Shown here: positions 1,682 to 43,000 of the stretch, piece by piece
How positions within the stretch are numbered: the first letter of the stretch is position 1
How the letters are laid out: each line of letters starts with the position of its first letter
From: Mytilus trossulus
Lineage: Eukaryota
Length of the DNA stretch: 64,000 nucleotides
Assembly: GCF_036588685.1 (NCBI RefSeq)
Contig: NC_086375.1
Span: forward strand, 92,690,001-92,754,000
Direction: 5' to 3'
Program-made: the position numbers and the translations under genes
The notes under the pieces: model-generated
What the model was told of the DNA's origin: nothing
Seen by the model: only the letters and a program-made list of their open reading frames with translations
Databases searched by the model: none

Positions 1682-1848
1682 AAACACGTGTTATGTGGAA
1701 AAGAGAAAGTCTTGACATACATGTACATAATGTCATACATTGAGTTTTTAAATACAATACAAAATGTTCACATATCTTTATAATGTCTTATTTACTTATT
1801 TCTATTAAATTTTGTCTATAATAAAAACCTTCTACTTAAATATAGAAA

Positions 1849-3026: not shown

Positions 3027-3051
3027 TAGAAACACAATTAATAAGAAAAGA

Positions 3052-9850: not shown

Positions 9851-12800
9851 ATGAAAGGTAATGAAGACTTTATTGAAAAGAGGCCACTTTTGGAAGACGA
9901 AAACTGTAAACAACAGCACAATGAACATTCAAAGAAAACTGCATTTCCAAGATGGCTGACGTTGTCTCTTGGAATAATTGTTGTCTTCCTACATTTTGTT
10001 TCCTATCTTCTGAACTTGTATGTCATGAATCAGTATTCATATAAGGCATATTATGAAAAAACGTTTCCAAACTCCTCACACAAGTCATCAGGAAATACAT
10101 CCGCGTGTGAACAAAACACCAATACCACAGAATATAAGCAACAGATTGTTATACAGAAACTAACTTCCGAATGGGGGATTTATTGTACACTTGCCAGTAA
10201 CATTCCTGGTATTATCTTTACAATCAATATTGGATCATTAAGTGATGCTTACGGAAGAAAACTATTCTTCGTGGCACCTCTACTTGGGACCGTTCTTAAA
10301 AATGGTCTTTGTTGTGTAGGGATTTACTATGGTTTCAATATAGAACTTTTTATTATATTTTACGGTATAGAAGGGTGTACCGGAAACTGGATATCCACCA
10401 TGTTGATGGTGTATTGCTATATTGCCGACCTTACAGAGCCTGGAAAACCCAGATCGCTTATTTATGGTATCTTAGAAGGAATTATTGGAATAGCAGCATT
10501 TATTTCTTCAACATTTTCAGGCTATCTTATTAAATGGACAGATGGATTCTTTTACCCGGAAGTAACATCTGTTGGTTTTGTTCTACTTGGTCTGATGATC
10601 GCTGTTTTCGTACTTCCGGAGTCACTTCCGCCGTCAAAAAGGAGAGATAAGGTTTCCTTTTTGGAGAACATAGGAAGAGCAACCGAATGTTACAGGCCAA
10701 ATTTCTCCCCTCACGGAAAACAGTGGATGTTCATAAATCTTCTATTCATTTTTATTTTGTCTGGATTTGCGAATTTAGGGCGAATCCAAGTAGAAACGCT
10801 GTATGAACTGAATTCTCCTTTCTGTTGGGATTCAGTCAAAATCGGTTGGTATGGCGCTTTAAAAATAGGAATGTTATCTATCGGGGGAATGATAATGATC
10901 AAGACTTTCCACTTTTGTGTGAACGATGAATACATTGCACTGACTGGTTTTGTAACTTCAGTGATTTCTGCCATCGTATTCGGACTTTCAACTACAGATA
11001 CCATGCTTTATATAGGTATGTTTCTATAAACTATATTATTGTCTTGGTCGGGATCACTTATTCCTGCATTCCTCAAATTTTAAGAGCATTTTCTTTGTCT
11101 TAAAAATGACGTTCATTCCGTATGATATTCTCATGAAAATGATTTTATTTTCAAACATTTCTGAAAATAGATTTTTTTTATTCTGTACATAGCTTATTTC
11201 AGTATTTTATAACTTAAATCTTTCGTCTTTAATATAGTTCTTTTGCTTTTGAACCGCATCATGCTATATTTTCTATTTTTTAGTTGATCCTTATATTCTT
11301 TATTTATTCAGACACTGCTACACACATCATTTTTAGCATACTAGTATGTTCATATAATGGATTTTTTTATGTTTTTTTTGGTGTAACTTTACATAAAAGT
11401 GTATGCTAAACGATAACGATCACCATTTCATTAAAAAAATACATGTATGAAGTTTGAGGAAATATATTTGTTTTGTATTCTCAGCTGCAGTGCTGAATTT
11501 TGGGAATACAGTGACTATGCCAATTGTTAGATCAATAATGTCACGTATGTTTTGTAATCTCAGCTGTAGTGCTAAATTTTGGGAATACAGTGACTATGCC
11601 AATTGTTAGATCAATAATGTCACGTATGTTTTGTATTCTCAGCTCCAGTGCTGAATTTTGGGAATACAGTGACTATGCCAATTGTAAGATCAATAATGTC
11701 ACGTATGTTTTGTATTCTCAGCTGCAGTGCTGAATTTTGGGAATACAGTGACTATGCCAATTGTTAGATCAATAATGTCACGTATGTTTTGTAATCTCAG
11801 CTCCAGTGCTGAATTTTGGGAATACAGTGACTATGCCAATTGTTAGATCAATAATGTCACGTATGTTTTGTAATCTCAGCTGCAGTGCTGAATTTTGGGA
11901 ATACAGTGACTATGCCAATTGTTAGATCAATAATATCACGTATGTTTTGTAATCTCAGCTGCAGTGCTGAATTTTGGGAATACAGTGACTATGCCAATTG
12001 TAATATCAATAATGTCACGTATGTTTTGTATTCTCAGCTGCAGTGCTGAATTTTGGGAATACAGTGACTATGCCAATTGTAAGATCAATAATGTCGCGTA
12101 TGACTCCAGCTCATAAAATAGGTGAGTATATATTTTATCCATACAAATGCTCAAGATTCTTTTTCTCGATCCGTGTTATGTTTTCTACGAATGGTGGAAT
12201 AAAAAGAAAAAGCGAACAGTATTGTGAAAAAATACAGATTTGATGTTCAATTCTCGTATTCAATAAAGCTTGGTCTTACTTTCCTATTTGAACTTTTAAA
12301 TTTCTGTCATATATCTGAAGTTTCGCAAACTAAAGTGATACTGACACTAGCAATGGAACACAGAAAAAAATGTTATATATATTATTAGAACGCAATATGA
12401 AAAAGAAGTCTTTTAAATATTTGTGATGAGGTATGTGATACAGACTACATTTGTTAGCTTCACTCGATCAAATGCAAAACGAAGCCAAATAATTCGTAAA
12501 ACTTTGACATAATATTTTGTTAATCAAAAGTATAATAGCAAAAATACCGAGCTACATGCAAGAAATATGACGTCTCGTCCCCGAGGGTATCACCAGCCCA
12601 GTAGTCAACATTTCGGTGTTGACATGAATATCAATAATGTGGTCATTTTTATAAATTTCCTGTTTATAAAACATTGAATTTTACAAAAAACTAAGGATTT
12701 TCTTATCCCAGGTATAAATTACCTAGGCCGTATTTGGCACAATTTTTTGGAATTTTGGATCCTCAATGCTCTTCAACTTTGATTTTGTTTGGCTTTATAA

Positions 12801-14748
12801 ATGTTTTGATATGAGCGTCACTGAGAGTCTTATGTAGACGAAACGCGCGTCTGGCGTACTAAATTACAATCCTGGTACCTTTGATAACTATTCGATACGG
12901 AAAAACTCGCAACAAATGCCAAAAGCAAAACGAGCAGAAAACAACTGTCATATTCCTGACTTGGTTATACATCATACAAGCAAAAATTAAAGACAGGAGT
13001 ACGAAAACTTACAAAAGTACAATAACACAATTGCGGGATGTATAAAAACTGAGATAAGCCAAGAGGCATAATACCTAAAGTCATGTAACAAAGGTTAAAA
13101 ATATACAAATATACAAAGACATATAAACAGAACACTATAACACGCAATTAAGTCAAAAATGGACCACGATTCTAAATTAAAAAAGATTCATGCGGCGTCA
13201 CATGATAATCTTTAACTGTTTTGTAACAGTTTTGTCTGCAGCAATCCAAGTATTCTGGAGAACTTTTGTCACAGAACGTCACTTAAACTCAACCAAAGGA
13301 ATATTGGAAATAATAAGTCGAAAATAAACGCCATAGCAAAAGATAAAAGAAAAAAGGCAAACAATAAATACAAAGCACAACAAAGAAAACTGCAAATGAA
13401 CAACATGTACCACTCCAAAACCCGATAGTGATCTCAGCAGGTCTGTACGTACGTATGCAGATATTGCTTCATATGTTGCACCTGTCGTGTTGCTAATGTA
13501 AATATAACCTCGAGAAACGTAAAATTGGTAGGTTACATTCGACAAAAAAGAGGATGGGATTATAGCTATTCAATCAAATCTGTCGTCATCTATGAAACAG
13601 ATAATCCATAACGGTCAACCAACTTGTGATGGCATCCGTAAAATTGTCGAAGAGATGATTACAACTTCACCACTTGAAACCCTTGGTATAACAATATTTT
13701 GATTTTCTTTTGATGATAGTTGTATTGTTTATTTGTACATTATGTAATGTATTTGTGGTATATTTTAGGTTCCGTTTTTGCTGGAATTGCCGCCATCGAG
13801 TTTATTTGCAACATGGCAAGTTCTCTTTTAGCTAATGCTGTGTATGACGCCACTGTAGAAATTTATAAAGGATTCACATTCTTTGTGATGGCTGGGTATG
13901 CTGTTATTGGTATTGTCTTGTGCTGGTAAGTATTAATCTGTGATTGCTGGGTATGCTGTTGTTGTAATTGTTTTATGTTGGCTTGATATGCTGCTGTTGT
14001 TTTTTTTTATGTTGGCTTGATATGATGTTGTTCGTTTTTTTTTATGTTGGTTGGATGTTTCTTGCTGGTATTGTTTTTATGAAGTAAGAATTGCTTGGGG
14101 GGGGGGGGGGGGGGGGGGTTTGATATGCTTTTGTAAGTGAAATTGTTCTTTAAAGGTAGATATTATTCTATCATATAGATATAGAAAGATGTGGTGTGAG
14201 TGCCAATCAGACAACTCTCCATCCAAAAAAACAATTTATAAAAGTAAACTTTTATAGGTCAATGTACGGCCTTCAATACGGAGCATTGGCTTACACCGAA
14301 CAATCAGCTACAAAGGGCCCCAACATTACTAGTGTTAAACAATGCAAACGGGAATACCAACGGTCTAATTTATATAAAAAACGAGAAACGAAAAATATGT
14401 GTGTATGCTGTTCGAGGAATTGTTTCGTAAAGGAAGATACTGCTAAGTCATCCTCATTTTAGTTAAACGTGCAATTCTACAACTTGAAAGGCGACTTCTT
14501 CTATTTGTCAATCAAACAATGTTAATAGATGCGTTGCAATTCACTAATCATAATATATTAAGATAAAACAAAACTAAGCAAAAAACGGAAACCTCACAAT
14601 CCCCAACACACGTAAAAACAATTAAGGCAACTATACTGACTAATTTTCATATCTATATTACAGTGTTCATATAGTAGGACAGAAGAGGCACGAAGAAAAA
14701 ACGTATTTGATTTCAACGACAGAAAAAGCTTCAAGCCAATATTCATAA
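9851..14748 (+). CDS. SLC46-family (PCFT/SLC46A3-like) MFS transporter, copy 2, ~496 aa; exons 9851-11015, 12038-12121, 13769-13925, 14664-14748
   Basis: Hydrophobic multi-TM protein with the MFS motif GSLSDAYGRK, plus YCYIADLT, VLPESLP, LYELNSPFCWD, RSIMSR and GSVFAG. All introns are GT-AG with consistent phases, and the exon total of 1491 nt is divisible by 3. N-terminal EKRPLL dileucine motif. AATAAA at 14781. Confidence 0.9.
11466..12121 (+). repeat. 79-bp minisatellite (8 units) built from the splice acceptor and first 60 nt of SLC46 copy 2 exon 2
   Basis: Units start at 11485, 11564, 11643, 11722, 11801, 11880, 11959 and 12038. Only the last continues into the full 84-nt exon ending G|GTGAGT. 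Confidence 0.95.
12568..12893 (+). mobile_element. Hammerhead retrozyme copy (non-autonomous retroelement); ribozyme core lacks N7
   Basis: gcgtca CTGA-GA gtct tatgt agac GAAAC gcgc GTC tggcgt at 12815-12857. The body is homologous to 19112-20070 and 30520-30750. Confidence 0.8.
14097..14118 (+). repeat. G22 homopolymer (potential G-quadruplex) in the last intron of SLC46 copy 2
   Basis: 22 consecutive G in an AT-rich background. Confidence 0.9.
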
Positions 14749-14922
14749 TATACTCATAACTGTATTACATCTTAGGAGTTAATAAAACTGTTTCCAATTT
14801 GGCAGTTTTGGAAGAATCGGGTATGATCCAATGTTCAGTTGATACTATCAAACTTTGTTTAGGTTACTCATGTAGTCAGTCAAAATTCACTCATTAAAAA
14901 TCGTAAAACTTTTGCTATATAT

Positions 14923-17900
14923 CTTCTTCTTTTTCTTCCAGGTAAGGAACCAGATTCATTGCTGAATGTTAATGGTTCCGCGCGAAAACTTTACGCAGTG
15001 TCGGGCAACACAGAAAGATTTCTCTTGGCTATTTACAAATTACATTTAAAACGTTCGCAAAAAAAATATACAATTAAAATTATTTACAACTGGTTTTCCT
15101 ACTTCCTTTCAGAGCATGCCTTCAGGGCAGCTCTGAATCCCTCAACGGTGTTGGTTGCTGTAACTGTTGTTGGTAGGTTGTTCCAGTCCCTGATTGTCCT
15201 CGGGAAGAAAGATTGGCCGTAGGTGTCTGTACTTGTTCTTTCTTGGAAGAAGCGGTTTTAACCTCTGGTCCGGTTATCATTCGGCGTCAAATATTGGTGA
15301 CGGTCTATATCTATAAGTTCATGCTGGATCTTGAATAGCATGCACAATCTATTTGTTTTCCTCCGTTCTTCGAGGCTTTCCCACTTTAGATTTTTAACCA
15401 TATTTGTGACACAGCCAGGTGTTCGGTCTGTGTAGTTGTTATTCACAAATCTTGCAGCTCTTTTCTGAACCTGTTCAATTGCCTTGATTTTATTTTGAGC
15501 GGTTGGGTCCCATACTGTGCTTGCATATTCCACTGCAGGTCTTACCATGGACACATATGCAGCTGCCTTTACAGGTTTTGTACAGCCTTTGAGGTTTCTA
15601 CGTATAAACCCCAAAGTTCTGTTTCCTTTGCCTACTGTATTGTCTATGTGTTTATCCCATGTTAGGTTGTTACTGATGGTTACTCCAAGATATTTACTTG
15701 CTTCCTCTGTGTCTAGAGTATGACCGTGAAGATGGTACGATGTTTGTATCACTGGTCTATTTTTGGGGGATATTCTAATGACAAGGCATTTTTTGGCATT
15801 AAAACTCATCTGCCATTTGTTTTCCCAGTCTTCCAATGCTGTTAAGTCCTTTTGGAGAAGTTCACTGTCAGCTTGGTTGGTGATGGTACGAAAGAGAAGG
15901 CTGTCATCCGCGAACAATTTGGTCTCTGATGTAGATGCTGTTTCTGGCATGTCATTAATGTAGGCCAGGAACAGTAATGGACCAAGGACTGTGCCTTGGG
16001 GTACACCAGAGAGTACTGGTACTTGTGAAGAGACGGCACCCTCTAATATCACGCTCTGCTTTCTGTTATGTAGGAAAGAGCGAATCCATTTATTGGTTTT
16101 GGGGTTGACGCCGTAGTATTCCAACTTGTGTAGGAGGCGGTGATGTTGTACCTTGTCAAATGCTTTTGCAAAGTCAAGCAGGATGATGTCTACTTGGCCG
16201 CTACTTTTTAATTTCGATGCAATGTCGTTGATGGTTACAACTAGTTGGGATTCGCATGATCGTCTTTTGCGGAATCCGTGTTGTGCATCAGTTAGTATTT
16301 TATTTTTGTCAAAGTGGTCCATGATGTTGCTATGTACAATATGTTCTAAGACCTTACATGTGATGGAAGTTAGAGATACTGGTCTGTAGTTAGATGCTAG
16401 GTGCCTTTCGTCTTTTTTAAAAAGTGGAACTACATTGGCATCTCTCCAATCTTGCGGGACTTCACCAGTGTTCAATGTTGTTTGATATAGGTCTGTGAGT
16501 ATAGGAGCAAGTTGTTCTGCTGCTGCTTTCAGTATAAAGGCTGGTATTGAATCGGGACCAGTAGCTTTATGCGGTTTCAGGTTTTTTAATAATTTGTGGA
16601 CTCCGTTGGTACTAATTGTTATGTCCTTCATGGTGGAGTATGGACTTTTTCCTTTATCCGGAAAGTTATTTAGGTTTTCTTTGGTAAATACTGACTGGAA
16701 TTGGTCGTTTAAAATGTCAGTTTTACTCTTGTTGTCACTTTGCAGAAATCCCATTTTGTTTTTTAGTGGTGCCACTCCTGTCCACTCCTGACCTTTGCTC
16801 TTGATATAAGACCAGAATTTCTTTGCATTATCTCTATAGTCGGAACTGACCTCTTCCATATACTTCTTGTTGGCTTGCCGGACCTCCCACTGCACTTCTT
16901 GTTGTAGTCTTTTATACCTGTCCTTGTCTCTTTTCTTTTTAGTTTTTCTCGCCTTCTTGTGTGCTTTCTGCTTTTGGTTTATTTTGCGTCTAATGGTTGT
17001 ATTGATCCATGGATGAGTGTTTCTTCCAAGGGTCATTTTCGTTGGTACTCTTTTCTCTATGGTGGTTTGTACAGTTGTTTTAAATGCCTGCCATAAAGAC
17101 TCAACGCTTCTATCTTTGATGTTTTTGAAGGTAGTTATAAAGTTTTGTAGATCTTCCTTTATATTATGTATTTCAGCTTTTTTCCATAGAAATATTTTTC
17201 TTCTGACTGGTTTAGGTTTAAGTGGTTTACAAGCCATATCTAGGAGGACGATGTCATGGTCGCTGTTTCCTATTGATGGTAATGGTTTGCATCTTAATTT
17301 AAATGAAGGATGAGATGTAAGCAATAAATCTAAGGTATTCTCTTTTCGTGTTGGAAAGTCCACAATTTGTTCTAGCCCGTTGTCAGCTACAAGTTCCAAG
17401 AATGCCTGGTTGGTTCTGGTGGGATACTGTCTATGGTCTATAGTTTGTTCTGCCCAGTTGATATCGGGTAAGTTGAAATCGCCACCAATAAGGAATATGT
17501 CTTTTTGATGTTTTGCTCTGATGTTATTTATTTCGTCTTTCATTTTATTCAAGTATGTGTCATCTGTTTTATCAGGTGGTCGATAAAAAGCGCCTATAAG
17601 CATTTTCTTTTTTCCTTCTAAGTTAATAGTGCCAGTTAGTAGTTCTATTTCTGTGCTTTTTATGATGTTACCCAGCTGTAATGTTTGTTTAGCTGCTATC
17701 AATACCCCTCCATGGGGGTCCTTTGGGCGATCTCGGCGTTCCGTGTCATAATGGAAGTAGTCTGGTATAATCTCGCTTGATTTGATGTTTGGATCAAGCC
17801 AGGTTTCCGTGCCTATTATTACATCTGGCTCAGTTGACTCAATGATTGCTTCGAGTAGTTTTCCTTTTTTTCTGAGACTTTGAAAATTGATGTTCAATAT

Positions 17901-17960
17901 TCTTAACTGTTTTTTAGTGACTGGTTTAGTTTTAGTTGGTTTTGGTGATGATGTCATGAT
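14923..17960 (-). mobile_element. Non-LTR retrotransposon (APE + RT ORF2, RTE-X-like), 5'-truncated, one premature stop
   Basis: 905-aa ORF. APE motifs: NINFQS, GTETWL, YRPP, GGDFNLP, SDHD. RT motifs: KATGPDSIP, NYRPVSLTS, DFAKAFD, GVPQGTVLGP, FADD. The frame continues past the TAA at 15258 as NRFFQ...SFFPRTIRDWNNLP. The 3' tail is GAAGAAAAAGAAGAAG at ~14923-14938. Clade assignment is tentative. Confidence 0.9.
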
Positions 17961-19111
17961 CGGTATAGCAAACAAAAAAAATCAATTCATAAAATTTTGG
18001 GACCATTTCATTTCAAAAAGGGTTATTGATAAAAGAGGAAACAAATTTAGAACCTTGAAGAAGAAATTTAATATGGAGAACTTTTAAAAATAAGATATCG
18101 ACAGAATTGATATTTTAAACTTTGTAAGAATAAGGATAAGTAATAGTGTCGTGGTGGTTTAAAAAGGCAGACATAAAAATATTGATTTAGAAAAAACAAA
18201 TTATGCGCCGTTATGGAAATGTGTAGTTGAAGATGAATAACACTTAACCATGTACCAAACTCAATGATTTGAGGACCTTTACCTCAGAATATTTTAGATA
18301 TTTTACCATGTTTTGATAATCTTTCAGACAATGACAAATTCTATCTATGACGAAATAATGATTATGATGTCAGTTGATATTGTATAAAAGGTATTAATGA
18401 GATTTACAAAATTAGATGTTCACTACCTTAAGTTATTTTATGCTATTGACAATATCAATCGTATTACTAGTATCTAAAACTGTACCTCCTCAGTCAGATA
18501 AAAAGAAGGGAGCAAAATTGAAAAATTACTAAATTTTATGTATCTCTAAATATTTTTTTGTTATGTTTTGTATTGTTATATAGTAATTGATTGTAATGAT
18601 TAAAATGTTTGTTCTTTGTTGTCTGTGTGTTGATAACAATCCAGATTTTGGATTTTATATCAATAACATTTTTGACTTTGACTTTAACAGTTGATTATTA
18701 GCAATTAAAGTTTATACTGTTTTGAGGGTAAATAAAATTCTGATGAGGATTAATTTTAACCTGATTTTTTTGGCGGCTGTGGTTGATGGTTAAAACATTC
18801 AACAACGTACGTACACTTTTCTATGATTATTTTTTTTTTATTAATTACAAAATCAAAAGCTCAAACACATCAAACGAATGCACAGCAAATATCATGTTCC
18901 TGACTTGGTAGAGGCATTTTCTTAGGTAGAAATGGTGTTTTAAACATGGTTTTATAGTTAGCTAAATTTCTGACTTGTATGACAGTCGTACAAAATTCCA
19001 CTATATTAAAAACGACGTTTGAACAAATTAAACAAACACAACGATGTAAAAATGTAAAAAAAAATGGAATACAACAATCAACATTGATTTATTACCTAGG
19101 TTAATCACTAT

Positions 19112-20070
19112 AATCAAAAGTACCAGGATTATAAATTAGTACGCCAGACGTGCGGTACGTCTACATAAGACTCATCAATGACGCTCATATCAAAATATTG
19201 ATAAAGCCAAATAAGTACAAAGTTGAAGAGCATTTGGGATAAAAAATTCCAAAAAATTGTGCCAAATACGGCTAAGGTAATCTATGCCTGGGATACACAG
19301 GCACTTGTTTCTGTCAATGTGGGGTTTACTATCCATACCAGTACAAAAAAAAACACAAGGTAGCTAACGGAAATTTTCAATTTGCCTTGTCTTGTTCACG
19401 AATAAAAGTACACCAGTCTTTCGGTAATTGACTTATCTTTACAATGAAACAACTTTCACGTACCTTGAGAATACCCCTCAAACAGAATAACACACTTGAG
19501 ATGAGAATTATTGACCTTTTTCCAGACCATTGAATTTGTAAGGACTAAACTTCCGGTTAACTTAGGAAGTGAATATAACTGTGCAATCCCAATGGTTACA
19601 TTTTTCTGGTTACTGGTAACTAGTATAAATAAACAGGTAACCAGATGAATTAAACCAATGAGATTGCACAGTTAAATTCACTTCCTAAGTTAACCGGAAG
19701 TTTAGTCCTTACAAATTCAATGGTCTGTAGTACTTTTATTCGTGAACAAGTAAAGGGAACATAAAAAAATATTGGTTGAAGCGAACAGATTGAAAATTTC
19801 CGTTAGCTACCTTGTATTTTTTTTGTACTGGTATGGATAGTAAACCCCACATTGACAGAAACAAGTGCCTGTGCTGGGATACGAAAATCCTTGGTTTTTC
19901 GTAAAATTTAAAGTTTTGTAAACAGAAAATTTATAAAAAAGACCACGTTATTGATATTCATGTCGACACTTCAGTGTTGACTACTGGGCTGGTGATACCA
20001 TCGGGGACGAAACGTCCACCAGCAGTGGCATCGACCCAGTGGTGTAAATAGTTATCACAAGTACCAGGAT
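19112..20070 (-). mobile_element. Full-length ~355-nt retrozyme monomer with terminal redundancy, interrupted by a MITE
   Basis: gtaccaggat recurs at 19120 and 20061 (941 apart). Removing the 578-bp MITE and 8-bp TSD leaves 355 nt. A degenerate hammerhead lies at 19141-19184 on the minus strand. Confidence 0.8.
19296..19873. mobile_element. Foldback MITE with 8-bp TSD (P/hAT-like termini CACAG...CTGTG)
   Basis: ~85-bp terminal inverted repeats, plus an inner inverted pair (~19523-19620 / ~19635-19727). TSD CTGGGATA at 19288-19295 and 19874-19881. Confidence 0.9.
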
Positions 20071-21248: not shown

Positions 21249-22790
21249 TACGGGGCGCCGAATGGGACTCTTGTGGTTTTGTACTCAAAATTCAATTTTG
21301 TACGGACAAAAGTGACTTTTGTTCAACAAAAATGAGTTCAGTTTAACAAAATTTGTATCATACTACAAATTTGAAATTTTGTATGTTATCAGCGGACAAA
21401 AGTCACTTTTGTCATGACAAAATTCATTTTTGTTACACAGACTTGACTTTTGTTACCTAATTTGAAAATTGAGCGACAAAAGTCAATTTTGTATTTAAAT
21501 TAGTTTAGTTTGGTTTCTGTGAACTAATTTGCATACAAAATCGACTTTTGTTACACAAAATTGACTTTTGTTACACAAAAATTACTTTTGTTACACAAAA
21601 TTGACTTTTGTTACACAAAATTGACTTTTGTTACACAAAATTGACTTTTGTTACACAAAATTGACTTTTGTTACACAAAATTGACTTTTGTCTCAACAAA
21701 ATTGACAAAATTGACTTTTGTCTCAACAAAATTGACAAAATTGAATTTTGTCTCAACAAAATTAACAAAATTGAATTTTGTCTCAACAAAATTGACAAAA
21801 TTGAATTTTGTCTCAACAAAATTAACAAAATTGAATTTTGTCTCAACAAAATTGACAAAATTGAATTTTGTTTCAACAAAATTGAATTTTGTCTCAACAA
21901 AATTAACAAAATTGAATTTTGTCTCAACAAAATTGATTTTTGTCTCACGAAAGTCAATTTTGTGTCACGAAAGTCAATTTTGTGTCACGAAAGTCAATTT
22001 TGTCTCATAAAAGTCAATTTTGTTGTTACAAAATTGAATTTTGTCATCACAAAAATGAATTTTGTCGTCACAAAATTGACTTTTGTCTCAACAAAATTGA
22101 CAAAATTGACTTTTGTCTCAACAAAATTAACAAAATTGACTTTTGTCTCAACAAAATTTACAAAATTGACTTTTGTCTCAACAAAATTAACAAAATTGAC
22201 TTTTGTCTCAACAAAAATGACAAGATTGAATTTTGTTTCAACAAAAATTACAAAATTGAATTTTGTCTCAACAAAAATGACAAAATTGAATTTTGTCTCA
22301 CAAAAGTGAATTTTGTCTCACAAAAGTCAATTTTGTCTCACAAAAGTCAATTTTGTCTCACAAAAGTCAATTTTGTCTCACAAAAGTCAATTTTGTCTCA
22401 CAAAAGTTAATTTTGTTTCACAAAAGTCAATTTTGTTTCACAAAAGTCAATTTTGTCTCACAAAATTGAATCTTACCGTACACAATTGACTTTTGTGATT
22501 TAATTTCCATATCAGGTAACAAAAGTCAATTTTGTATGCAAATATGTTTATATTTGCATACCTTTAAGACAAAATTGACTTTTGTCATGACAAATATGAA
22601 TTTTGTCTACAAAAATGAATTTTGTCATGACAAAAATGAATTTTGTCTACACAAATGAATTTTGTCATCACAAAATTGATGTTCTCACAAAACAAGTCTG
22701 TAGCACATAGTTTTGTAAGACAAAAATGATTTTGTTATGACAGAATTGAATTTTGTACAAAACCACAAGAGTCCCATTCGGCGCCCCGTA
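21249..22790. mobile_element. TIR element (TACGG...CCGTA termini, 5-bp TSD) filled with 20/30-bp minisatellite arrays
   Basis: 36-bp perfect TIRs tacggggcgccgaatgggactcttgtggttttgtac. TSD TCTCG at 21244-21248 and 22791-22795. The interior is arrays of ACAAAATTGA(C/A)TTTTGT variants. Confidence 0.9.
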
Positions 22791-25026: not shown

Positions 25027-25590
25027 AAAGAGGGACGAAAGATACCAAAGGGACAGTCAAACGCGTAAATCTAAAACAAACTGACAACGCCATGGCTAAA
25101 AATGAAAAAGACAAACAGAAAAACAATAGTACACATGACACAACATAGAAAACTAAAGAATAAACAACACGAACCCCACCAAAAACTAGGGGTGATCTCA
25201 GGTGCTCCGGAAGGGTAAGCAGATCCTGCTCCACATGCGGCACCCGTCGTGTTGCTTATGTGATTACAAATCCGGTAAAAAGTCTAATTCGGTAGGTCAA
25301 ATTCATGAAAGGGAAGGGGATTGTAGTTACGACGTAAGGAACATATCCGATATCATTTGTGAAACGGTTATTCCATAACGGTCAACCAACTCGTGATGGC
25401 GTCCGTAAAATATACGAAGGGATGATTTCAACTTCACCATTTGGAACTCTTGGTTTAATAGCTTCCTTGTGAGCAGTAACCCTCTATCAAGAAAATCATG
25501 ATAGGAAATGCAAGCACGGGAATATCGTATCAATTGGGAGATATATATCCCGTATGCAGGTGCTGCTTGAATGTTGCTACTTAGAAATGA
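25027..25590 (-). mobile_element. Naiad-type PLE family 1, 3' fragment
   Basis: Near-identical to 3052-3620. Encodes ...ISQLIRYSRACISYHDFLDRG...SDMFLTS*. Confidence 0.85.
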
Positions 25591-28500: not shown

Positions 28501-30519
28501 GGCAGACCACATTGATCAAGTGATATTTTTATTTTGATAGCGATAGTGATTGATTCTTCATCTGTTCATTGTTTATTTTGTTTGAATATTGATGTTAAGT
28601 TTTCAACTAAACATTTTTTTGTATCTTTTCGTTGAAAGCCTTAGGCACGGGTGTTGGTAGTTCTCTTGGTATGGCGATGAGCAGAGCAATCATGTCTAGG
28701 ATAACTCCAGATAATAAACAAGGTAGGTTATACGGTACATGTTATTTAAGTACAATATTTCAAAGGGCTAATTCTAGACTAGGGTTATATATGATGGTAT
28801 AGTTAGTTGTGGTTTATGTTATCTTTAAGTGAAGGATAGTTTAGTGTAGCTATATATATATATATGTTTGGACGGCTTGAAGTAAACAAGAAGATGAAAA
28901 TCAAACAGATGTGACAGGATTGACCTAAGATGGTTGGGGTGTCTCTTCCTCCATCTTGGATTTTGATGTAGCAGATGGTCTAGATCTTTAATGAAATGTG
29001 CAAGTTTTGAGAGTAAAACGTAATCCATGTCGGCATGTGTAAGACTTTTCGTGTTGATATAGAAAATTATGTGTTTCATCATAATTGCGGCTGTATTTTA
29101 TAAAAAGAAACTATTTTCGTTTGATGCATTATTTTTTAACTTTACCATATATATAACGAAAGATAACTCGGATAGAAGGGAAGTTTACTCAGACAAGGTT
29201 TTTTTTCATAATATAAAGTGTTGTGTATTTACATGTCTTAAAATGTAGTTAGAAATCAGTCCGGACGGTGACACTATTCATTTGTCTATTTCTTATCGAA
29301 AAGCATGTTATAAGAGCTGTCCTCTCAAATTTTATCTTAAAAGTCTGTCGTGTAGTTTTCTGTTTATAACACCCAGTTGGATTCTTAATGTATAATCTAA
29401 ACAAAATCTGACAATTTTGAACCATCTATAGCGTGAGAAAAAGCCTTGTGACCTATAATTTTAATTTGTATATTTTAGAAAAAGCATGGAAAAAATTATA
29501 TTTTGACAAATATTTAAAAAAGCATTCTATGGGTTCGAATGGAGACACACACCCTGCCTGTCAGAAAAAGAGAACTATCTTGCTCGATTTATTTAACACA
29601 ATGTTTTGAACAATGCAATTTAAACCATATATACTTATAAAGTGTCTCTATATAAGTATTTTACATTTAGGTTCAGTTTTTGCTGGAGTAGCTGTACCTG
29701 AAATTGTATTTAGTTTAGTCAGTAGTCTAGGGGCGAATGCAATTTATGATGCTACCGTTTCAATATATAGAGGACTCACATTTTTCATCATGGCAGGATA
29801 TGGCTTCATAGGGATTATTTTATGTCTGTAAGTTATATATTGGTTATGTCGAGAATGAAAACAATAATAAATAAAACTCCCTGGAATAATCTTTAGTAAA
29901 CTTTAAATTTTAATGTGCGTGCCATCCTACAAATTCATGTAGCATATCTTCGAAACATGACTTGTCACATTCAGGAACACACACACATATCTTTGTTCAT
30001 CATTCTTTTTTACCGAGATTCTATCTGATGACTGATGTAGACCCAAGAAAACAGTAAATACGATTAATTACAGAATTTCCACTTACAATGAGAAAAAATG
30101 ATAAGTACAACTAGGGGTTCAGGATCTGTTTATATTTTCAGACGACCTAAGAAAGATTTTTGGTCGCATAAAAAAAATCGTTCTTACTTAAAACGCTATG
30201 TTAACCCAAAAATGCGGTTTATTAACCCTGAAAACAACACAAAGAGCAACGGATATATATCAGACAGAAACTTTATCCCCTTATATACATATACAAGAAA
30301 AGTAAAGAAAGATTTGTAAAGCTCTATTTCCTTCTGTATTGATTCAAATTTTAAAAAATCTGCAGTCTCTCTGGCATCTCGATGTCTAAATATTCGCAAT
30401 ATATATCGCAGAGGAGAAAGAAATTGTTCTTGGAATGAATTACATAATGATAAATGAATGACAAATCTTTTGAAAAAAAAACAACAGATATACTGATTTG
30501 TCTTTTTTCAACATATGTC

Positions 30520-30750
30520 TAATTTCCTAATTTTTTGAATTTTTCGAAAAAATAAAGATTTTGTCATCCCAGGCATAGATTACCTTAGTCATATTTGGCA
30601 TAATTTTGGGGAATTTTTGATCCTCAATGTTTTTCAACTTTGTACTTGTTTGGCTTTATAAATGTTTTGATATGAGCGTCACTGATGAGTCTTATGTAGA
30701 CGAAACGCGCGTTTGGCGTACTAAATTATAATGCTGGTACCTTTGATAAT
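30520..30750 (+). mobile_element. Retrozyme copy (5'-truncated) in the last intron of SLC46 copy 3
   Basis: Homologous to 12655-12893. Ends with ctggtacctttgataa. Confidence 0.8.
30676..30719 (+). ncRNA. Minimal type I hammerhead ribozyme (intact core)
   Basis: Stem I GCGUCA/UGGCGU, core CUGAUGA, stem II GUCU-UAUGU-AGAC, GAAA, palindromic stem III AC-GCGC-GU. Cleavage triplet GUU, cutting after 30713. Confidence 0.85.
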
Positions 30751-32018
30751 TCTCCCTAATAATTTCAAAAACAATTATTTTGTAGAATTCTAATCTGGGG
30801 ACAGAAAGGATATAAGATGTCGAAGGATACAAACGCAATAACAATACACGTGGCAGAAGATGACAAACAAGTGGTCAACGGTTATCAGATTCAGGACCAG
30901 AGTTATGAAAACAGTCACCATTTCTGAACAATTAAATCTTCACACACAAATAATATAAAAAAAACTTTTTGTATTGTTGTGCCGGAGTTGGAATAATCTA
31001 AAGCTGGGAGAAACCGCGTTACTTCAACATATATGCAATCTTCATAAGTTTAAAATCAAATTATCCCGGTATTTGTAAATACAAACCAGAGGCATATGAT
31101 GATATTGATATTCATCATACTGTAAAGTGGTATTTCATATTTTAGCACCAGGTCAATACCACTGCTAGTGGAATGCTTGCCATTGTCTGTTCTTTTGTAT
31201 TTTGTTAACATATTAAGTTGCCCGTCTTTAAAGTAAAAAAGTTTTAAGAAACTAAGGTTTAACTCCCTCTGTTAAAATCGACCTTAGCTTGAATAGATTC
31301 GTTTATGGTCATGTAGCTTTTCGTCCAACATTCATGTATTTATTTATGATGTTTCTGTTGTGGTTTCTGTTAGATATTGTGTTATGTCTTATCTTGTGTG
31401 ATTTGGATTCTATATTTTCGTTACATTTCACGTACGACGTATTTGTCAGTTTAGTCGAGTGAATTTCCATTTTCCATGGATAAAGAATTGTGTTAGAACA
31501 AATAATTATGAAGTCGTCACAGCTTTATTTTTAAATAGCTTTTCCATACCGCCTTAATCATGATAATTGTTTTGCGTCTTTTGACTAGTATTTAAAAAAA
31601 CAAACTTATATGAATTTTAAGATAATATATTCGTCACATAAATACGTCACTGATTGTATGGTCGTGTGCTGTCATTGATGGAAGATGCTCGTTTATATTC
31701 TGCGAACTTATACATCCCGTCATTGTATTATGTAATATGGTAAATTTTGGTATTGTTATTTTTCATTTTTGCTAATGTGCTTTGCGTATATGCCTTTTTG
31801 TGGATTTTTGGTCACATATGACGTAGCTCTGTACATATACATCATGTCATTGTATTATTGTGCAATGGTAAATTCTTGTATTCTTTTCCTTCATTTTTAC
31901 TAATGTGCCTCGTCTGTATGTCTTTTTGTTATTCTTTGTTACACATTTTTTTTTCTAGATTGATTAGACACAATGTTGACTACTGTATCCCAATTTTTTA
32001 CGTTTTTGTCTATTATAT

Positions 32019-32861: not shown

Positions 32862-32945
32862 AATAAACTCATCATAGATACCAGGATTAAATTAACGCCT
32901 GACGCCGGTTTCGTCTACAAAAGACTCATTAGGGACGCTCGAATC
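32862..32945 (-). mobile_element. Retrozyme fragment (second subfamily), degenerate hammerhead
   Basis: The minus strand reads gcgtcc CTAATGA gtct tttgt agac GAAAC cggc GTC aggcgt ... cctggtatctatgatgagttt. Confidence 0.65.
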
Positions 32946-34083: not shown

Positions 34084-37000
34084 TTAAAACTCTGTTTCAA
34101 ATCTCCCCGATTTTGTCCTGAAAGTGCGTGGAAATTCAGGTAAAGCATCACCTGATGTCAATGATACACTTCCATCATCGTCCTCAACTTCTTCTGTACA
34201 ATAGGGCAATGGTTCAGATATCATTACACCTTTTGTGTTTGGTCGTGTATCACCGCCATATTGTGAAACGGATGTTATGGCACCAAATCCAGTTGTGGTA
34301 GGTCTTGACATTAATCCAAAACTTAGACCTGTTATTCCTGTCATTCGCGTAATAACTCCATAGTTTCTTTGAAATTCAAACGGAGGAGGAAGTCTGCCTG
34401 GGATGAATATTATAACACCGACAGCAATCGTCTGCTTCATGTCACGGATTATAATTCTTCCAAGTGAAGGGTAATCAAAAAAACATTCAACGCATATCGG
34501 ACGAATAGGTTTTAAGTCAACAACACCCAATTCACCTGGACGCAGGCATGACGGATTTTCTTCTGCGCATTGGCCTGTTCGTCTATCACATCGTTCTTTT
34601 ATTTCTAAGAACTTGCAGGCGACCATTGACGTATGACAATGCAGAATAGGGGTGTAACCCTTCTTTATAGTACCCGGATGATTTAATATCATTATCTGAA
34701 AATATAAATGTGTTATGTGTATTTCATCTCGATTCATCACAGTGAACTATCTTCATCACAATCTATTGAAAAATAATAATTATGTTACCGTTCAAGTATC
34801 TCGAGAAATTCACAAAAATATATCTGATACTCAACTCATTTTCTAAAATATTTTACACGAGGAGGAGATGAACTTATATTGACTTGATATAACCCGTTCT
34901 GCTAATTTGTCTAACTAATGTGTATTCTTGATTATTTTTTTCTTTTCAAAAAGGGCAAATCATTCATTTACCAGTAATGCAAACTTTGACAGAATGTAGA
35001 TGATCGCCTCTGACAATCAGGTATTCAAACATTATTTGAGGGAGGTGATAAATATATTGAAGGGCACGCACACTATTTGACGGACGTTGTGCAAAGAATC
35101 ATTATGATGGTTACCAAATAAGAAACGGAGTTCAACTAAAAAATGATATTTCTATAAATATATACTTGAACACACCCGTGATATCGCGGGTCCGTGACTG
35201 AATTAAAATATATAACTATGCGTATGCCTTATTTTAGTATTGGTATTGTCATCTGATAAAGTCCCGCCATGCCGATTATAAGATGCACAGTTTTCTCTAC
35301 TTTCAAAATCTTTCTGTTTGAACCCGTCGACCTGGAACCTATCAATTATTGGTAATATTAATATTGGAAAACAAAACGGCTTGGAATGGAGTATCTTTTA
35401 CTCAACAGTATACAGCAAAATTCTAAATACACCGTTTGGTGGTGCGCCTGTCAGATGCGGAACGTACAGATGAGGTAATAGGTAACAGATGAATATACTA
35501 TTGGTATCGGTGTCGGATTCGATCCGGAACTTCTTAATTATTGGCAATATTAATTACGTGGAAAACAAAGGGACCTGGAGTGGTGTAATTTTTAATCAAC
35601 ATCATTGTACTATATTAGTTACATGTAAAGTTGAATTCTTTGATTCATCGTTTTTACGTGATGACGGCTGACAAATTGGACCTCGTAATTTTAGTATTAT
35701 AGATATGATCTACGCAGCGATGTTTGTAAAAATACTGAAATGAATCTCTAAGGTATTTCAACATAGAGCATATTTTTTAGGGGATGTCTATTGTTTTGTA
35801 ATTTACATGGACATTTATGGGGACTGTTTTATAAGTCGCATTGCTGAATATGACGGCGTGAGAATGATCGAAAATAACCGATTGAGTAGGGAATGTATTT
35901 ATACCTGAGCAGTAAACTGTGTGACGGCTTGTGGTGGATCGTCACAGGTATCCCCACACACATCACCTTTCCTGATGTCTTTAAGTGTATAATTCTCAAT
36001 CTGTATCCCCACATTGTCACCTGGCCTTGCTTCATCCATAACTTCTCGAAAAACTTGCACTGCCCGTACCTGTATGAACGAACAACTGATGATTATTCAA
36101 CAGGTTAACATACCACTTCGGAAAAAAAATCAGCTTTTGATTTCTGAACATCAAATTTAAGCAATACTGAAATGCCTCATCGTATTCCAAATTAAAAATG
36201 AAGTTGTTTTCATTTGATTATTTCCTTACAGTATAAATCAAACGTGTTTTTTATGTGGGTAGGGAATAGAAGGTCTCATACTTGCACTGCCCGGACCTAT
36301 ATGAACGAAACTCTGATGATTATTCAACAGGTTAACATACCACTTCGAAAAACAAAATCAGCTTTTGATTTCTAAACATCAATTTCAATCAATACCGAAA
36401 GGCCGCAACGTATTCCAAATTAAAAAAAATCAATTGAAGTTGATTTCATTTTATTACGTCCTTACAGTATAAATTAAATGGGTTTTTCATGTGGGTAGGG
36501 AATACAAGATCTCATAGAATGAACACAAATTATAGTTCAAATGATGTTCCTTAAAACAAATAATCTCAACTTTAAAATACGTATATCTAATACCAAGACA
36601 CATACTTCTTAATCTTGATTGAACTGTAAAATTCGATGGACTGTTTTCTAATATATGTTAACCCTTAACATTTGAAAAATAATTGAATTGTGGAATTCCA
36701 TGCAACTGTTATACAAGTGGGTGGTTTAGCTATCTATAAAAACAGGTTTAATCCACCGTTTTCTACCAAAAAAATGTCTGTATCAAGTCAGAAATATGAC
36801 AGCTGTTATACATTCGTTTGATGTTTGAGCCTTTGATGTTCCCATTTTATAAGAGACTTTCCGAATTGAATTTTCCTTGGAGTTCGACATCTTTGTTATT
36901 TTACTTTTTACTCCTCAAGTAATGGCCAGGCATAACAAACACAATTAAGGTGGTACCTAACACTACAGGGAGATAACTCTGTAATATCAGCTAAACGTTT

Positions 37001-40000
37001 TAATTACGTTGTGTTGTAAAAGGAATATTAACAGTTATCAAAGGTACCAGGATTATTAAGCTTCTCAATGATCAAAATAAGTGTTTGTCAAACTGCTATA
37101 TAACCAGTGTAATTTTTCTGATAAAACGGTTGGTTCAAATCTTTTGAAATTTTTATATTTTTGGCAAAGGGTCAAAGTAAATACTTTGTCAAAATTTTAA
37201 GAAAATTAAACGAGCCAAATGAATTGTAGTTAAAGTGTTAGGTACCACCTTAACAACTGGAAAGGTATTGTATTTATTTTCTTCTTCGAAGGAACGAGTT
37301 GGACAATTTGGAGTAAGATGTTTCAAACATTAACGAAAGCGGAACTTCGAAATAATTAATAATTTTCTGAAGCAAGTTTGGTTGAACAAAAGTGGCATAA
37401 GCAACTATGTTGACAGACAAATCTGAAGACAAACATCGCCTTTTAATAAAATTATTGGTTCTGATAAACCGTTATTTATCATATGAATCTTTTCTGAAAT
37501 TAAAATGTCCTGGTTCTTTTCTAACTTCGAAGGTATCAACAATAAGTTAGCGAATAGTTGTTGCCTATAATAACTCTTGTAGCTGATCAAATTGAAAGAC
37601 GTTTAATATAGCAAACATGTTCTAATTAAAGCCAAAATAAACTCATGTAATATCTACTTCTGTGTCAATCTGTATTTTATTGGTTGTTTATTGAATGTCA
37701 TTCGAACGTTTCCTCTTTGAAAGATGCACTGTAGTTTTTTTGACTTTAAAATGAAATATGATTGGGATGATTTTTTTTGGTTTTTTATTTTGTTTAAGTG
37801 ACATTTTCGAAAGAAATTTCTATAAAACTAAATTATACCACATTAAAAAAACAATTTGCACTCAACGTATCGTCTTCTGTGTTCCAAAATAAACATTAGC
37901 ACGATACTGCCAAACAGATTGATTGCATAACCTCCTGTATAGCAACAGAAAATTAACTTGCTAGAATACATTACTCTGTCGTGGTCATTTATTTTGATTC
38001 AAATTGAGAACGCTACTGTTTTGTAAATTCCTTTCATAATTAACGATGGTGACAGAGTCTTTCATCATGGTACAAAATACACAGAATTTAGATGAAAATT
38101 ACAGGAAGCTGTGTGAAAATCGATGGAGAGAAATTTTGTAGAGAAACAAGAAACACAATTATTAGGCCTGTAATTTGGTTTTCCACATCTGTTGCAACGA
38201 GATTGTAAATTTAGTTAACAAGTCAATACATACAAATTACCCGCAAAATTGAACACATACATTTCAATACAAACATAGTATTTATTCTTTATGCGAACGA
38301 TTTTTTGAGAAAATGATTCTTGCTTGAGAGCTTGAATTTACATTTACTTCAAACAATATTCAATAGGGCAGTGATTTAATACGTAGAAATTGCATCTTTT
38401 ATTCAAGAGAATATTTAAATGAAATTATGAACCTTTTGAAATTTGTCTAGTTTAGATTGGAATTCTTCAATTAAAAAGATTATCAAACTGTTTTCAATGA
38501 ATAAGCGAAATTACGTGATATAAACGTATGTTGTGTTAGCATGGTTATAAAGCTGCACTTATTTTACCATCATCAGTTCATTGAACTTGCACACAACTGT
38601 TTTTGGGAGCCAGCTGAAGCCCGCCTCTGGGTCCCGAAATTTTTCACTTTGTTGAAGACACATTGGTGGCCTCAGTCGTTTTTTTGCTCTCTGCTCAGTT
38701 TGTTTTCTTTTTGACATATTCCTCATTTCCATTCTAAATTTAAATAGGTTTTCGCAAATAATGGGTGTTAAGTAGCTTAATTAAAGCTCAATTTTAGATA
38801 TTTTGATTCAAGTTATCCTGTCATTCAAATTTAACCAATGATTCAATTTGCAATATTTTTTTTAAATATTATAAGCAAGAATGGTTGATATGGACATAAA
38901 GTTAAAACTTTTAATTTTCATTTTGCAGATGATATGCTTAAAGAACTATAGACAATATTATTTTCATACTTTGAACGACATCATTTTATATCTCTACCTG
39001 TGTGACATTAACATTCTGACATTATACGCGCGATTCAACATTAGAACAATATTGATCTGGCCATTCGGTCCACACATTTCAATCGTTTATGGGTGGATTT
39101 AACAAACATAAATAAAATTTAAAAAAAAAAGAAAGCAATGAATGAGATTGTTTCATTTGATATATGCATTTTGTGCATCTTTGTTATATATTTGTTTGTT
39201 TTTATTAGTATTAAGATACTTTTGGTACATGTAAATTTTGACATTTTTAAAATTGAGAGAGGAAATGGTGAATGTATCAAAGCGGCTACCACCCGACCAT
39301 AGAGAAGAGAACATACGAAGGCAACCAATGGGTTTTCTAATATGCTTTGTCTATATGTCTTCTGGTGTAACTTCGAAAACTTGTTTGTTGCTCGTCTTTC
39401 ATTTTTGCTATGTGCTTTGTCTATATAGATATAGGAAGATGTGGTGTGAGTGCCAATGAGACAACTCTCCATCCAAATAACAATTTAAAAATTAAACCAT
39501 TATAGGTTAAAGTACGGCCTTCAACACGGAGCCTTGGCTCACACCGAACAACAAGCTATAAAGGGCCCCAAAATTACTAGTGTAAAACCATTCAAACGGG
39601 AAAACCAACGGTCTAATCTATATAAAAAAAACGAGAAACGAGAAACACGTATATATTACATAAACAAACGACAACTACTGTACATCAGATTCCCTTTTTA
39701 TGTTTCTTCGTTACATATATGACGTAGATCTGTACTTATACATCCCGTCATTGTGTTATTGTACTATGGTTAATTTGTGTAATTTTTACTAATATGCTTG
39801 GTCTGTATGACGTTTTGTGCTCCTTTGTTACATGTTTATATGTGTTTTTAGTTATTATGATTAAAGCACAATGTTGACTGCTGTAATATGAACATTTTCA
39901 CCTATTATGTCTGTTTGTTGTGTTCACGCATCGATGTCAACATAATGGAATTTGATGTGACTGTCATACAATTGAGAGGTTAAGTTAGATACAACACCAG

Positions 40001-43000
40001 GTGCGATTAACAATTTTCCACATAAGAAAATGTCTGTACCAAGACAGGGATATGTCAGTAGTATCCATACGTTTGATGTGTTTGAGTTTTTGATTTTGCC
40101 ATTTGATAATGGACTTTCCGGTTTGATTTTTTGATTTTTTTTTTGATTTTGCTTTTTTCCAATACTGAATCATGTCATTAAAAATTAATACACAGGGAAC
40201 ACGTTATCATATTTCCTCCTTTCCTATTATATTACCCTTGGATGAATATTGATTGGAGCATAATTGACACCCGTGTCTTGGTGTATATAACCTGAGTTAT
40301 ATGTGAGTAACATAAACGCACAGGGGACCAGTTATTATATGTCCTCCTTACCTTAGGATGGATATTGTTTGGAGCATAATTGACACACGTGTCTTGTTGT
40401 ATATAACCTGAATCATATTTGAGTAATATAAACGCACAGGGGACTAGTTATTACATATCCTCCTTACCTTAGGATGAATATTATTTGGAGAATAACTGAC
40501 ACCCGTGTCGTGTTGTATATAACCTGAATCATATTTGAGTAATATAAACGCAAAGGGGACCAATTATGATATGTCGGCCTTACCTTAGAGTGAATATTGT
40601 TTGAAGCATAACTGACACCCGTGTCGTGTTGTATATAACCTGAATCATATTTGAGTAATATAAACGCAAAGGGGACCAATTATGATATGTCGGCCTTACC
40701 TTAGAGTGAATATTGTTTGAAGCATAACTGACACCCGTGTCGTGTTGTATATAACCTGAATCATAGCTGAGTAACATAAACGCAAAGGGGACCAAATATT
40801 ATATGTCGTCCTTATCTTAGAGTGAATATTGTTTGGAGCATAACTGACACCCGTGTCGTGTTGTATAACCTGAATCATATTTGAGTAATATAAACGCAAA
40901 GGGGACCAAATATTATATGTCGTCCTTACCTTAGAGTGAATATTGTTTGGAGCATAACTGACACCCATGTCTGGTCGGATATAACCACAGTGTATTCGTC
41001 CAGCTGTCACAATACCTATTTCTGAAATAGTATTACATCGATACATAACAGCAGGAGCCTGTAATTCAGTGGTTGTCGTTTGTTTATGTGTTACATATTT
41101 GTTTTTCGTTCATTTTTTTACATAAATAAGGCCGTTGGTTTTTTCGTTTGAATTGTTTTACATTGTTTTATCGGGGCCTTTTATAGCTGACTATGCGGTA
41201 TGGGCTTTGCTCATTGTTGAAGGCCGTACGGTGACCTATAGTTGTTAATGTTTTTGTCATTTTGGTCTTTTGTGGATAGTTGTCTCATTGGCAATCATAC
41301 CACATCTTCTTTTTTATATTATACCTATAAATGAAAACATATCTCTAACAAATAATATAATATATCTCATCGGACTTTGTCTAATGCTTAGTCTGTTTCT
41401 GTGTGTTTTACATTTTTAAGTTGTGTCGTTGTTCTCCTCTTATATTTTAAGCGTTTCCCTCAGTGTTAGTTTGTTACTCCGATTTTGTTTTTTGCCCATG
41501 GAATTACGAGTTTTGATGATGCCTTTATTTATAAAGCAATACAACTTCATATTAAAAAGTAAAAACACAAAAATACCGAACTCCGAGGAAAATTCAAAAA
41601 GGAAAATCAAAAATCAAAAGGCAAAATCAAAAGTCCAAACACATCAAACGAATGGGTAACAACTGTCATATTCCTGACTTGGTACAGGCATTTTCTAATG
41701 TAGAAAATGGTGGATTGAACCTGGTTTTATAGCTAGCTAAACCTCTCACTTATATGACAGTCGCATCAAATTCCATTAAATTGTCAACGATGCATGAACA
41801 AAACAAACATACTCAAAGAGTAAAAATGTCAAAATAGGGGTACAACAGTCAATATTGTGTTATCATCTTAATATCTCTACATAAACAACAAATGTAACAA
41901 AGAAGCACAAAAAGGCATACATTAATTTAACATTCTCATTTTGCTTTTCTTATACGGCTGAATTTATCTATGTAAAGTCTACCCATAATGATAGAAGGTT
42001 TCATTACTGGTTTAAAAATGCGCGTTTGAAATTCGCACAGGTAGACATAAAAATAATTTTGTCGTATGACGGCATACATAAATGAAGACTTACGTAAAGT
42101 TAATATAACAAAAACAGACTTAACAGTAAAAGTAATAATAATAAATAAAATAATGGTGTGGTTCAAAGTATGACGGGATACATAAGAACAGTTTCACGTC
42201 AAATACGGCTGCATTTATCTAGTATGTAAAGTCTACCCATAAATGATAGAAGGTTTTCATTACTGGTGTAAAATAGCGCGTTTGAAATTCGCACAGGTAG
42301 ACATAAAAAATAATTTTGTCGTATGTCGGCATACATAAATACAGACTCACGTAAAGTAGATATACCAAAAACCAGACTTAACAGTAAAAGTAATAATAAT
42401 AAATAAAATAATGGTTTGGTTCAAAGTATGACGGGATACATAAGTACAGTTTCACGTCAAATGTATATCATGAAAAACAGACTAAACAGAAAAAGTAGTA
42501 TTATTGAATAAAATAGTTTTGTCATTCATAGTATTCAAGATCCTTAAGTAAAAGTAATTTCAAAGTATGTGGTTTTACATTACCACTGAGTCACTTCAAA
42601 TGATTATCTAAAAAAGACTTATAAAAGAATTCTATAATACGTAATTAAGATGATAACAAACGTCAGTACGCAAAATCTATCCTTCAAGACCATCTTGTAT
42701 TATTTGTGAAGTTGATACGGAATATTTATCAACAAGTTCTGGGTATCTTCCGATGAACTTTTTTAGAAAAAGGACGAGACGTTCTTTGACATACCCCTGG
42801 TTCATCAACTTTCTGCTCAGACACTGGTGACGTTTTACAAAGTCTGAATAGGAGCTGCAAGCTCTTGAATACCTAATAAGTTGGGAAATGTATATTCCAT
42901 ATGCAGGTGAAGTTGGTATATTACTACTTAGGTGGGGAAAATTGATAATTTCAAAATTAAAATCGTCTCGTTTGTCATAGATTCTGGTACTGAGATGACT

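Follow-up and report, generated by a model that had tools for sequence, protein, structure and literature searches.

Four tandem arrays in a 64,000-nucleotide (nt) stretch of the genome of the mussel Mytilus trossulus (RefSeq assembly GCF_036588685.1, contig NC_086375.1, positions 92,690,001–92,754,000 of the forward strand; hereafter the window, to which all coordinates refer) repeat the edge of a coding exon together with the adjoining intron. Arrays 1 and 2 lie in a gene for an SLC46A3-like transporter (gene A), and arrays 3 and 4 in a gene for an EF1-alpha-like GTPase (gene B). We consider it highly probable that all four are mirage minisatellites, i.e., tandem duplications that take in the edge of an exon with its splice site, which are likely spliced out as intron. 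Among the copies, the complete exon comes last in the acceptor-side arrays and first in the donor-side arrays, and removal with the intron is likely since a single complete exon keeps its original sites at the exon-side end. The arrays are likely silent intronic duplications, and we found no positive evidence of exon birth, which an initial annotation of the window had raised.

Arrays at exon-intron junctions of two intact genes

The initial annotation described four junction-straddling arrays in two unrelated genes. All four exist close to where it placed them, at real junctions of intact genes, but automatic tools set only three of them across a junction. Tandem Repeats Finder (TRF) misses array 3 and places array 2 at 13952-14050, adjoining the junction rather than crossing it, and self-BLAST finds arrays 1, 3 and 4 among 11 clusters. 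The marks of a mirage were found: head-to-tail units spanning a real exon-intron boundary are clear in arrays 1, 3 and 4 and decayed in array 2, many but not all copies retain AG or GT, and in array 4 the inner units are homogenised and the edge units divergent.

Array 1 (11469..12102, plus strand; 79 nt × 8, 96% matches in the tandem-repeat call) is an acceptor-side mirage whose unit joins a 19-nt spacer (GTATGT..TCTCAG) to the first 60 nt of exon 2. Its decoy exon starts (11485, 11564, 11643, 11722, 11801, 11880 and 11959) precede the real start at 12038, and the acceptor AG is kept in all seven. The 60-nt blocks end CAC/GTATGT and are symmetric and stop-free, and the copies are 93.7–100% identical to each other. 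The final and sole complete copy is the real exon 2 (12038..12121, 84 nt, phase 1-1), equal in length to the corresponding exon of a paralog at 28639-28722; only this last copy reaches the real donor at 12121. Array 2 (13885..14097, plus strand) comprises decayed donor-side copies of the end of exon 3, whose real donor follows 13925. The copy of the exon end gave a local score of 47, reached by none of 2000 shuffles. The nearest copies have no donor, a donor-like GAA/GTAAGA follows 14083 at the far end, and an exon-like block is absent.

In gene B, array 3 (36053..36516, minus strand) is an acceptor-side duplication of two ~230-nt copies that are 86% identical, with a decoy acceptor before 36296 and the real acceptor before 36069. 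Between its TAG acceptor and a GTATGA sits a symmetric, stop-free 15-nt block (36296-36282, encoding VRAVQ); an exon codon supplies the GT of the latter, and intron sequence the remainder. Array 4 (40191..40986, minus strand; 116 nt × 6.5) is a donor-side mirage beyond the real donor after 40930, and its unit joins a 60-nt GT..AG piece ending TCAG to the 56 nt at the end of exon 7. The nearest block (40869-40816) is 54 nt long with its donor changed to AT, and further blocks of 56 nt each, with 60-nt spacers between them, lie at 40755-40700, 40639-40584, 40523-40468, 40407-40352 and 40291-40236. GT is thereby kept in five of six copies (one of them weak). Two inner units are 100% identical, distal units 85–89% and the terminal unit about 70%. 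Copies in arrays 3 and 4 diverge down to 85–86% identity and carry private substitutions. Each donor-side array has lost GT in the copy closest to the real donor (13941-13986 in array 2, 40816-40869 in array 4), and farther copies are donor-like; anecdotally (two of two arrays), this is what disfavoured decoy use would produce. Orthologous loci were sought in two metagenome scans, in which none of 73 and none of 46 candidates were confirmed.

The window is mussel DNA, the open reading frame (ORF) at 9851-11014 being 100% identical to the M. trossulus SLC46A3-like protein P0001. Gene A (9851..14748, plus strand) encodes an MFS transporter in four coding exons (9851-11015, 12038-12121, 13769-13925 and 14664-14748); their joined translation equals P0001 exactly and matches Pfam MFS_1. 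Gene B (34084..53247, minus strand) has nine coding exons (53247-52695, 50506-50450, 49738-49443, 48890-48711, 47420-47253, 46930-46651, 41021-40930, 36069-35905 and 34695-34084), and their joined translation equals the M. trossulus EF1-alpha-2-like protein P0035 exactly, with Pfam matches to GTP_EFTU and GTP_EFTU_D3. We rejected the possibility that gene B is a pseudogene, as an apparently absent exon was found at 48890-48711 and the ORF is intact. Scallop homologues share the long N-terminal extension and the C-terminal tail of its protein, which is a divergent bivalve paralog.

Splice sites and reading frame of the copied blocks

The initial annotation held that in three arrays the duplication breakpoint supplies the missing splice site. 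This is the case in arrays 3 and 4, but not in array 1, where the donor-like GTATG is already present in the native exon (CGTATG) and the breakpoint, at which two bases are shared, adds only the T at +6. Partner splice sites of the array blocks have scores that fall inside the range spanned by real sites of the window: the partner donors CAC/GTATGT and CAA/GTATGA reach 6.0 and 5.3, compared with 3.3–10.4 for real donors (leave-one-out), on a matrix trained on the 15 donors and 16 acceptors of this window only.

Frame compatibility had been claimed for the same three blocks, on what proved to be two definitions of the term. The 60-nt and 15-nt blocks are symmetric, but the 56-nt block is not (56 mod 3 = 2); if added it causes a frameshift, and it fits the frame only when it takes the place of the 92-nt exon 7. 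Such a replacement deletes E512-C523, within which 10 residues (I513-H522) are invariant among four mussel and three scallop proteins, and the loss of these residues rules out array 4 as a working mutually exclusive exon. Not every array offers a block that could leave the protein functional: the array 4 block would shift the frame or remove the invariant residues and array 2 has no block, and the blocks of arrays 1 and 3 are in frame. The chance rate of frame-fitting blocks was estimated from 20,000 simulated junction-straddling duplications, which yielded a plausible partner site in 22–56%, a symmetric stop-free block in 8–22% and a loosely compatible block in 10–30%. By the strict test, a symmetric stop-free block in two of the four arrays has P = 0.03–0.22. 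The stricter score thresholds were fixed after the observed scores were known, which biases P downward, and with a matrix built on 31 sites the frame argument is therefore weak but not refuted.

Direct use of decoy sites that are identical to the real ones would enjoy no frame protection. None of the unit lengths (79, 56, 227 and 116 nt for arrays 1–4) is divisible by three, and direct decoy-site use therefore shifts the frame or meets a stop. Among the seven upstream acceptors of array 1, four lead to a stop within 45 codons, two cause frameshifts and one was incompletely read. Reading on from the decoys of arrays 2 and 3 leads to a stop only a few codons further, and read-through from exon 7 into array 4 meets one at 40696. 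Joining of adjacent blocks also appears constrained. A steric limit of <50 nt between donor and branch point is quoted for human exons (PMC5740500), and the 19-nt spacer of array 1 falls under it; splicing could therefore join neither two adjacent blocks nor the last block to the real exon. Blocks at least two units upstream would leave an intron of at least 98 nt, and their joining is possible.

It had also been suggested that arrays survive selectively when they are frame-safe. This is unneeded, since after any junction duplication a whole exon is still flanked by the sites it had and the additional copies become part of the intron; survival therefore requires no frame safety. Distinct changes in array 4 affect 17 of 54 sites in the exon-derived part and 16 of 60 in the intron part (Fisher P = 0.68), i.e., exon-derived parts change as fast as intron parts, which lends no support to the proposal that the arrays are a source of new exons.

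Transcripts and gene models

We looked for the blocks in assembled contigs from 4 of 24 listed sequencing runs (region 9800-14900, gene A) and in protein models. One RNA contig (X18 record 17) joins exon 1 to exon 3: it matches 9800-11013 and 13766-13922, and the 83 letters separating these parts correspond to one 84-nt exon 2. The RNA contigs of X11 and X18 have no cover over 11168-12022, and this gap is not evidence against inclusion. The NCBI RefSeq-type proteins of the two genes (P0001 and P0035) contain no extra block. The eight SLC46 orthologue models that extend at least to exon 2 (12 cluster members aligned, four of them fragments) all lack the 20-amino-acid (aa) block of array 1, and among shorter proteins with exons 2-3 there were three matches, none with the duplicated block. 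The 5-aa or 18-aa change that the gene B blocks would bring is found in none of seven full-length EF1a-like models (four Mytilus, three scallop); a further 11 short cluster members span the last exon only and are uninformative for arrays 3 and 4. With a canonical RNA contig and canonical gene models, there is no positive evidence that the arrays have served as a source of new exons.

Several observations weigh against the view that the arrays are silent. The canonical RNA contig is the sole informative one and concerns gene A only; over 9800-11013 it departs from the window at 49 letters, and the animal it came from may therefore lack array 1. Assembled contigs also drop rare transcript forms. 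A loosely frame-fitting, plausible block occurs in three of the four arrays, for which chance gives P = 0.004–0.09. Comparison of the copies with the real exons gave 11 synonymous to 14 non-synonymous changes (P = 0.02–0.05), a mild synonymous excess; two of the 11 synonymous changes are non-synonymous in the codon context of the copy, and the corrected ratio is 9:16 (P = 0.12–0.18). Substitutions in the real exon, which is under constraint, would likewise shift this ratio. In humans, 6-16 and CBS use their nearest pseudo-donors (PMC1557585). Lastly, the SLC46A3 model P0026 of M. coruscus includes an in-frame 14-aa junction duplication.

The repeat in P0026 (residues ~406-433, ending IGE) is equivalent to 12085-12126 in the window and is missing from the sister model P0020. 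It is encoded by the end of exon 2 plus the first five intron bases, and this match to exon end and intron start points to a separate 42-nt donor-side duplication of the same exon. A second, independent hit on SLC46 exon 2 in M. coruscus, on its donor side, is therefore likely, as judged from the protein model.

Excess of arrays at junctions

The initial annotation, which put the number of junctions in the window at about 30, considered the arrays enriched there. We counted 31 (15 donors and 16 acceptors), including those of two further SLC46 paralogs. TRF and self-BLAST calls with units of at least 20 nt were pooled (n = 21), array 2 being entered with manual coordinates. Four of these 21 arrays touch a junction, for which a null based on unit length expects 0.68 (P = 0.004) and one based on the whole array span expects 2.2 (P = 0.16). 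When array 2 takes its TRF coordinates the count is 3 of 21 (P = 0.027 and 0.37, respectively), and BLAST clusters only give 3 of 11 (P = 0.011 and 0.27). Restricted to arrays inside gene spans, four of eight lie at junctions, compared with 0.86 expected under the unit-length null (P = 0.005; span null, P = 0.14). The unit-length null is the apter one because an array grows after its seed. The claimed enrichment hence stands under the unit-length null (P = 0.004–0.03) and disappears under the span null (P = 0.16–0.37). At P = 0.004–0.027, moreover, 1000–6750 of 250,000 windows would pass by chance, and this window was selected for the pattern. Several of the arrays away from junctions come from interspersed repeats, and the null set is therefore mixed. 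The local excess of junction-straddling duplications is a plausible lead, not a result.

Origin and fate of the arrays

Each unit consists of an exon edge and flanking intron, and the breakpoints share only one or two bases. These short shared stretches, together with the contrast between inner and edge units of array 4, fit a local duplication that would have been followed by amplification and partial homogenisation through unequal exchange or slippage. The spliceosome would then take the site adjoining the complete exon, as precedent in amphioxus and humans and the one RNA contig suggest. Rare use of a decoy would mostly produce frameshifts or stops, and such transcripts may be cleared by nonsense-mediated decay while the copies drift near-neutrally. 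We rejected an RNA-templated (back-splice) origin, since the array 4 junction keeps the intronic AG, the units keep intron and the breakpoints share one or two bases.

Mutation bias offers a reading compatible with mirages that are spliced out: tandem duplications may start preferentially at exon edges genome-wide, through recombination, transcription or chromatin, whatever their splicing fate. The unit-length null speaks for it (4 of 21 arrays, or 4 of 8 in gene spans, against 0.68 or 0.86 expected; P = 0.004 or 0.005), as does the apparently independent donor-side duplication that P0026 suggests at the same SLC46 exon 2 in M. coruscus. The span nulls (P = 0.14–0.38), the drop to 3 of 21 with automatic coordinates, the selection of the window for this pattern with 1000–6750 of 250,000 windows passing by chance, and the mixed null set all count against it, and we regard it as possible but doubtful. 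We hold it unlikely that the arrays, while mostly silent, yield low-level, copy-number-dependent in-frame alternative splicing and so provide raw material for exon birth. Its candidates would be the 60-nt block in SLC46 and a 15-nt microexon in gene B, whose in-frame nature would aid survival. Both blocks are symmetric and stop-free with partner sites in the score range of real sites, blocks at least two units upstream leave an intron of at least 98 nt, the strict frame test gave P = 0.03–0.22, and the 14-aa duplication in P0026 and pseudo-site use in human 6-16 and CBS (PMC1557585) point the same way. However, the blocks appeared in no transcript or model among the contigs and protein models compared. 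Being in frame is also not the same as being harmless: the 20-aa block would repeat a membrane region of the transporter, judging from the MFS fold, and the copies differ by the changes A>P, R>I, M>I, R>Q, P>H and M>T.

An extended version of these ideas, to which we give slightly less credence still, is that Mytilus duplications favour exon edges and are retained more often when their breakpoint brackets a block in frame, with polymorphic mirages feeding low-level, copy-number-dependent inclusion of new exons of 15–60 nt genome-wide. Under it, the SLC46 exon was apparently struck in two independent events, acceptor-side in the window and donor-side in M. coruscus. That the arrays are mis-assembled repeats is very improbable. 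Array 1 copies are near-identical, some 100%, and a frameshift near 27498 in an SLC46 paralog could be an assembly error, but the arrays hold private substitutions and diverge to 85–86% in arrays 3 and 4. DNA contigs pile on array 1 (up to 115 vs 9–13 in X1, 107 vs about 50 in X5), a depth that differs between runs and is no measure of copy number, and an X1 contig spans array 2 (13620-14201); this pile-up and the spanning contig argue against mis-assembly for arrays 1 and 2. Mirage minisatellites that are removed with the intron accordingly remain our preferred explanation.

Neighbouring features of the window

The window contains a tandem SLC46 cluster. Besides gene A, one paralog (27088-30927, plus strand) has the frameshift near 27498 in its exon 1 relative to P0007, reflecting a broken allele, a pseudogene or an assembly error, and the final two exons of a third paralog lie at 358-1681 (plus strand), exon 3 being 98% identical to P0012. 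Directly downstream of gene A, an open 907-aa ORF (15258-17981, minus strand) with endonuclease and reverse transcriptase domains (Pfam Exo_endo_phos and RVT_1) represents a non-long-terminal-repeat (non-LTR) retrotransposon. Intron 6 of gene B holds an open 758-aa ORF with a YIDD motif (42677-44953, minus strand), which resembles fragments at 3353-4152 and 25327-25626; by eye it is reverse-transcriptase-like, and it had no Pfam match at E ≤ 0.001. A minisatellite (53928-54900, 79 nt × 12.3, 96% matches) that starts inside an interspersed-repeat fragment lies upstream of gene B, some 700 nt from its start codon. Further repeats include a complex 20/30-nt satellite (21277-22762) with copies in both orientations and inverted flanks, which has the look of a foldback or miniature inverted-repeat transposable element, and a long inverted repeat (19300-19875) with arms of several hundred bases, noticed by eye and with the arm match computed.

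Relation to known junction-spanning repeats

The Mytilus arrays are new, and the kind of repeat is already described in lancelets and humans; a literature search, thin on subscription journals, found no mirage-type arrays in Mytilus, molluscs or oyster. They are a clear instance, from a mollusc, of an established repeat type, and they show one way in which gene predictors may come to call spurious in-frame exon repeats. Local duplication as a route to exon and intron gain is a published proposal supported by few cases caught in the act. If a genome-wide junction bias and RNA inclusion proved true, Mytilus, for which several chromosome-scale annotated genomes exist, would be a practical system for watching such gain.

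In amphioxus, mirages in Adh3 and the globins BflGb6 and BflGb9 are tandem duplications of 5' or 3' exon-intron boundaries in which many copies keep AG or GT, and reverse transcription PCR shows normal splicing (PMC3087553); troponin C and PGBD5 are further cases (PMC3902484). The idea that mirages lead to exon or intron gain is already published for amphioxus, as a model in which intron gain recruits the exonic part of the repeat as a real exon (PMC3087553). The Mytilus arrays resemble amphioxus mirages in their boundary-spanning copies on acceptor and donor sides, the many AG or GT retained, and inner copies that are more alike than those at the edge. They differ in their mollusc host and in comprising four arrays in two genes with units of 56–230 nt. 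Length polymorphism and somatic instability are features of amphioxus mirages.

Internal duplication is a cited route to intron gain (PMC2809761), and the Rogers model, Gao & Lynch 2009 and Zhuo et al. 2007, as cited in PMC3087553 and PMC2809761, treat intron or exon gain by internal tandem duplication. The arrays agree with this model in that a local duplication with AG and GT can create new splice units. The new introns or exons of those cases are reported as used, as far as these citing papers relate, whereas block use was not seen in the one RNA contig and the gene models of Mytilus.

Human border variable number tandem repeats (VNTRs) include the 37-bp repeat of F7 IVS7 and those of 6-16, CBS, LMNB2 and PDGF, in which use is confined to the first donor or the first few donors (PMC1557585). 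As in these repeats, the first monomer of arrays 2 and 4 spans the junction and the donor is repeated into the intron; in humans it is usually the authentic donor only that is used. The human repeats, in the part of that account considered here, are donor-side only, unlike arrays 1 and 3, which lie on the acceptor side, and Mytilus units differ further in that they bring in a partner site as well, by which a small block is bracketed.

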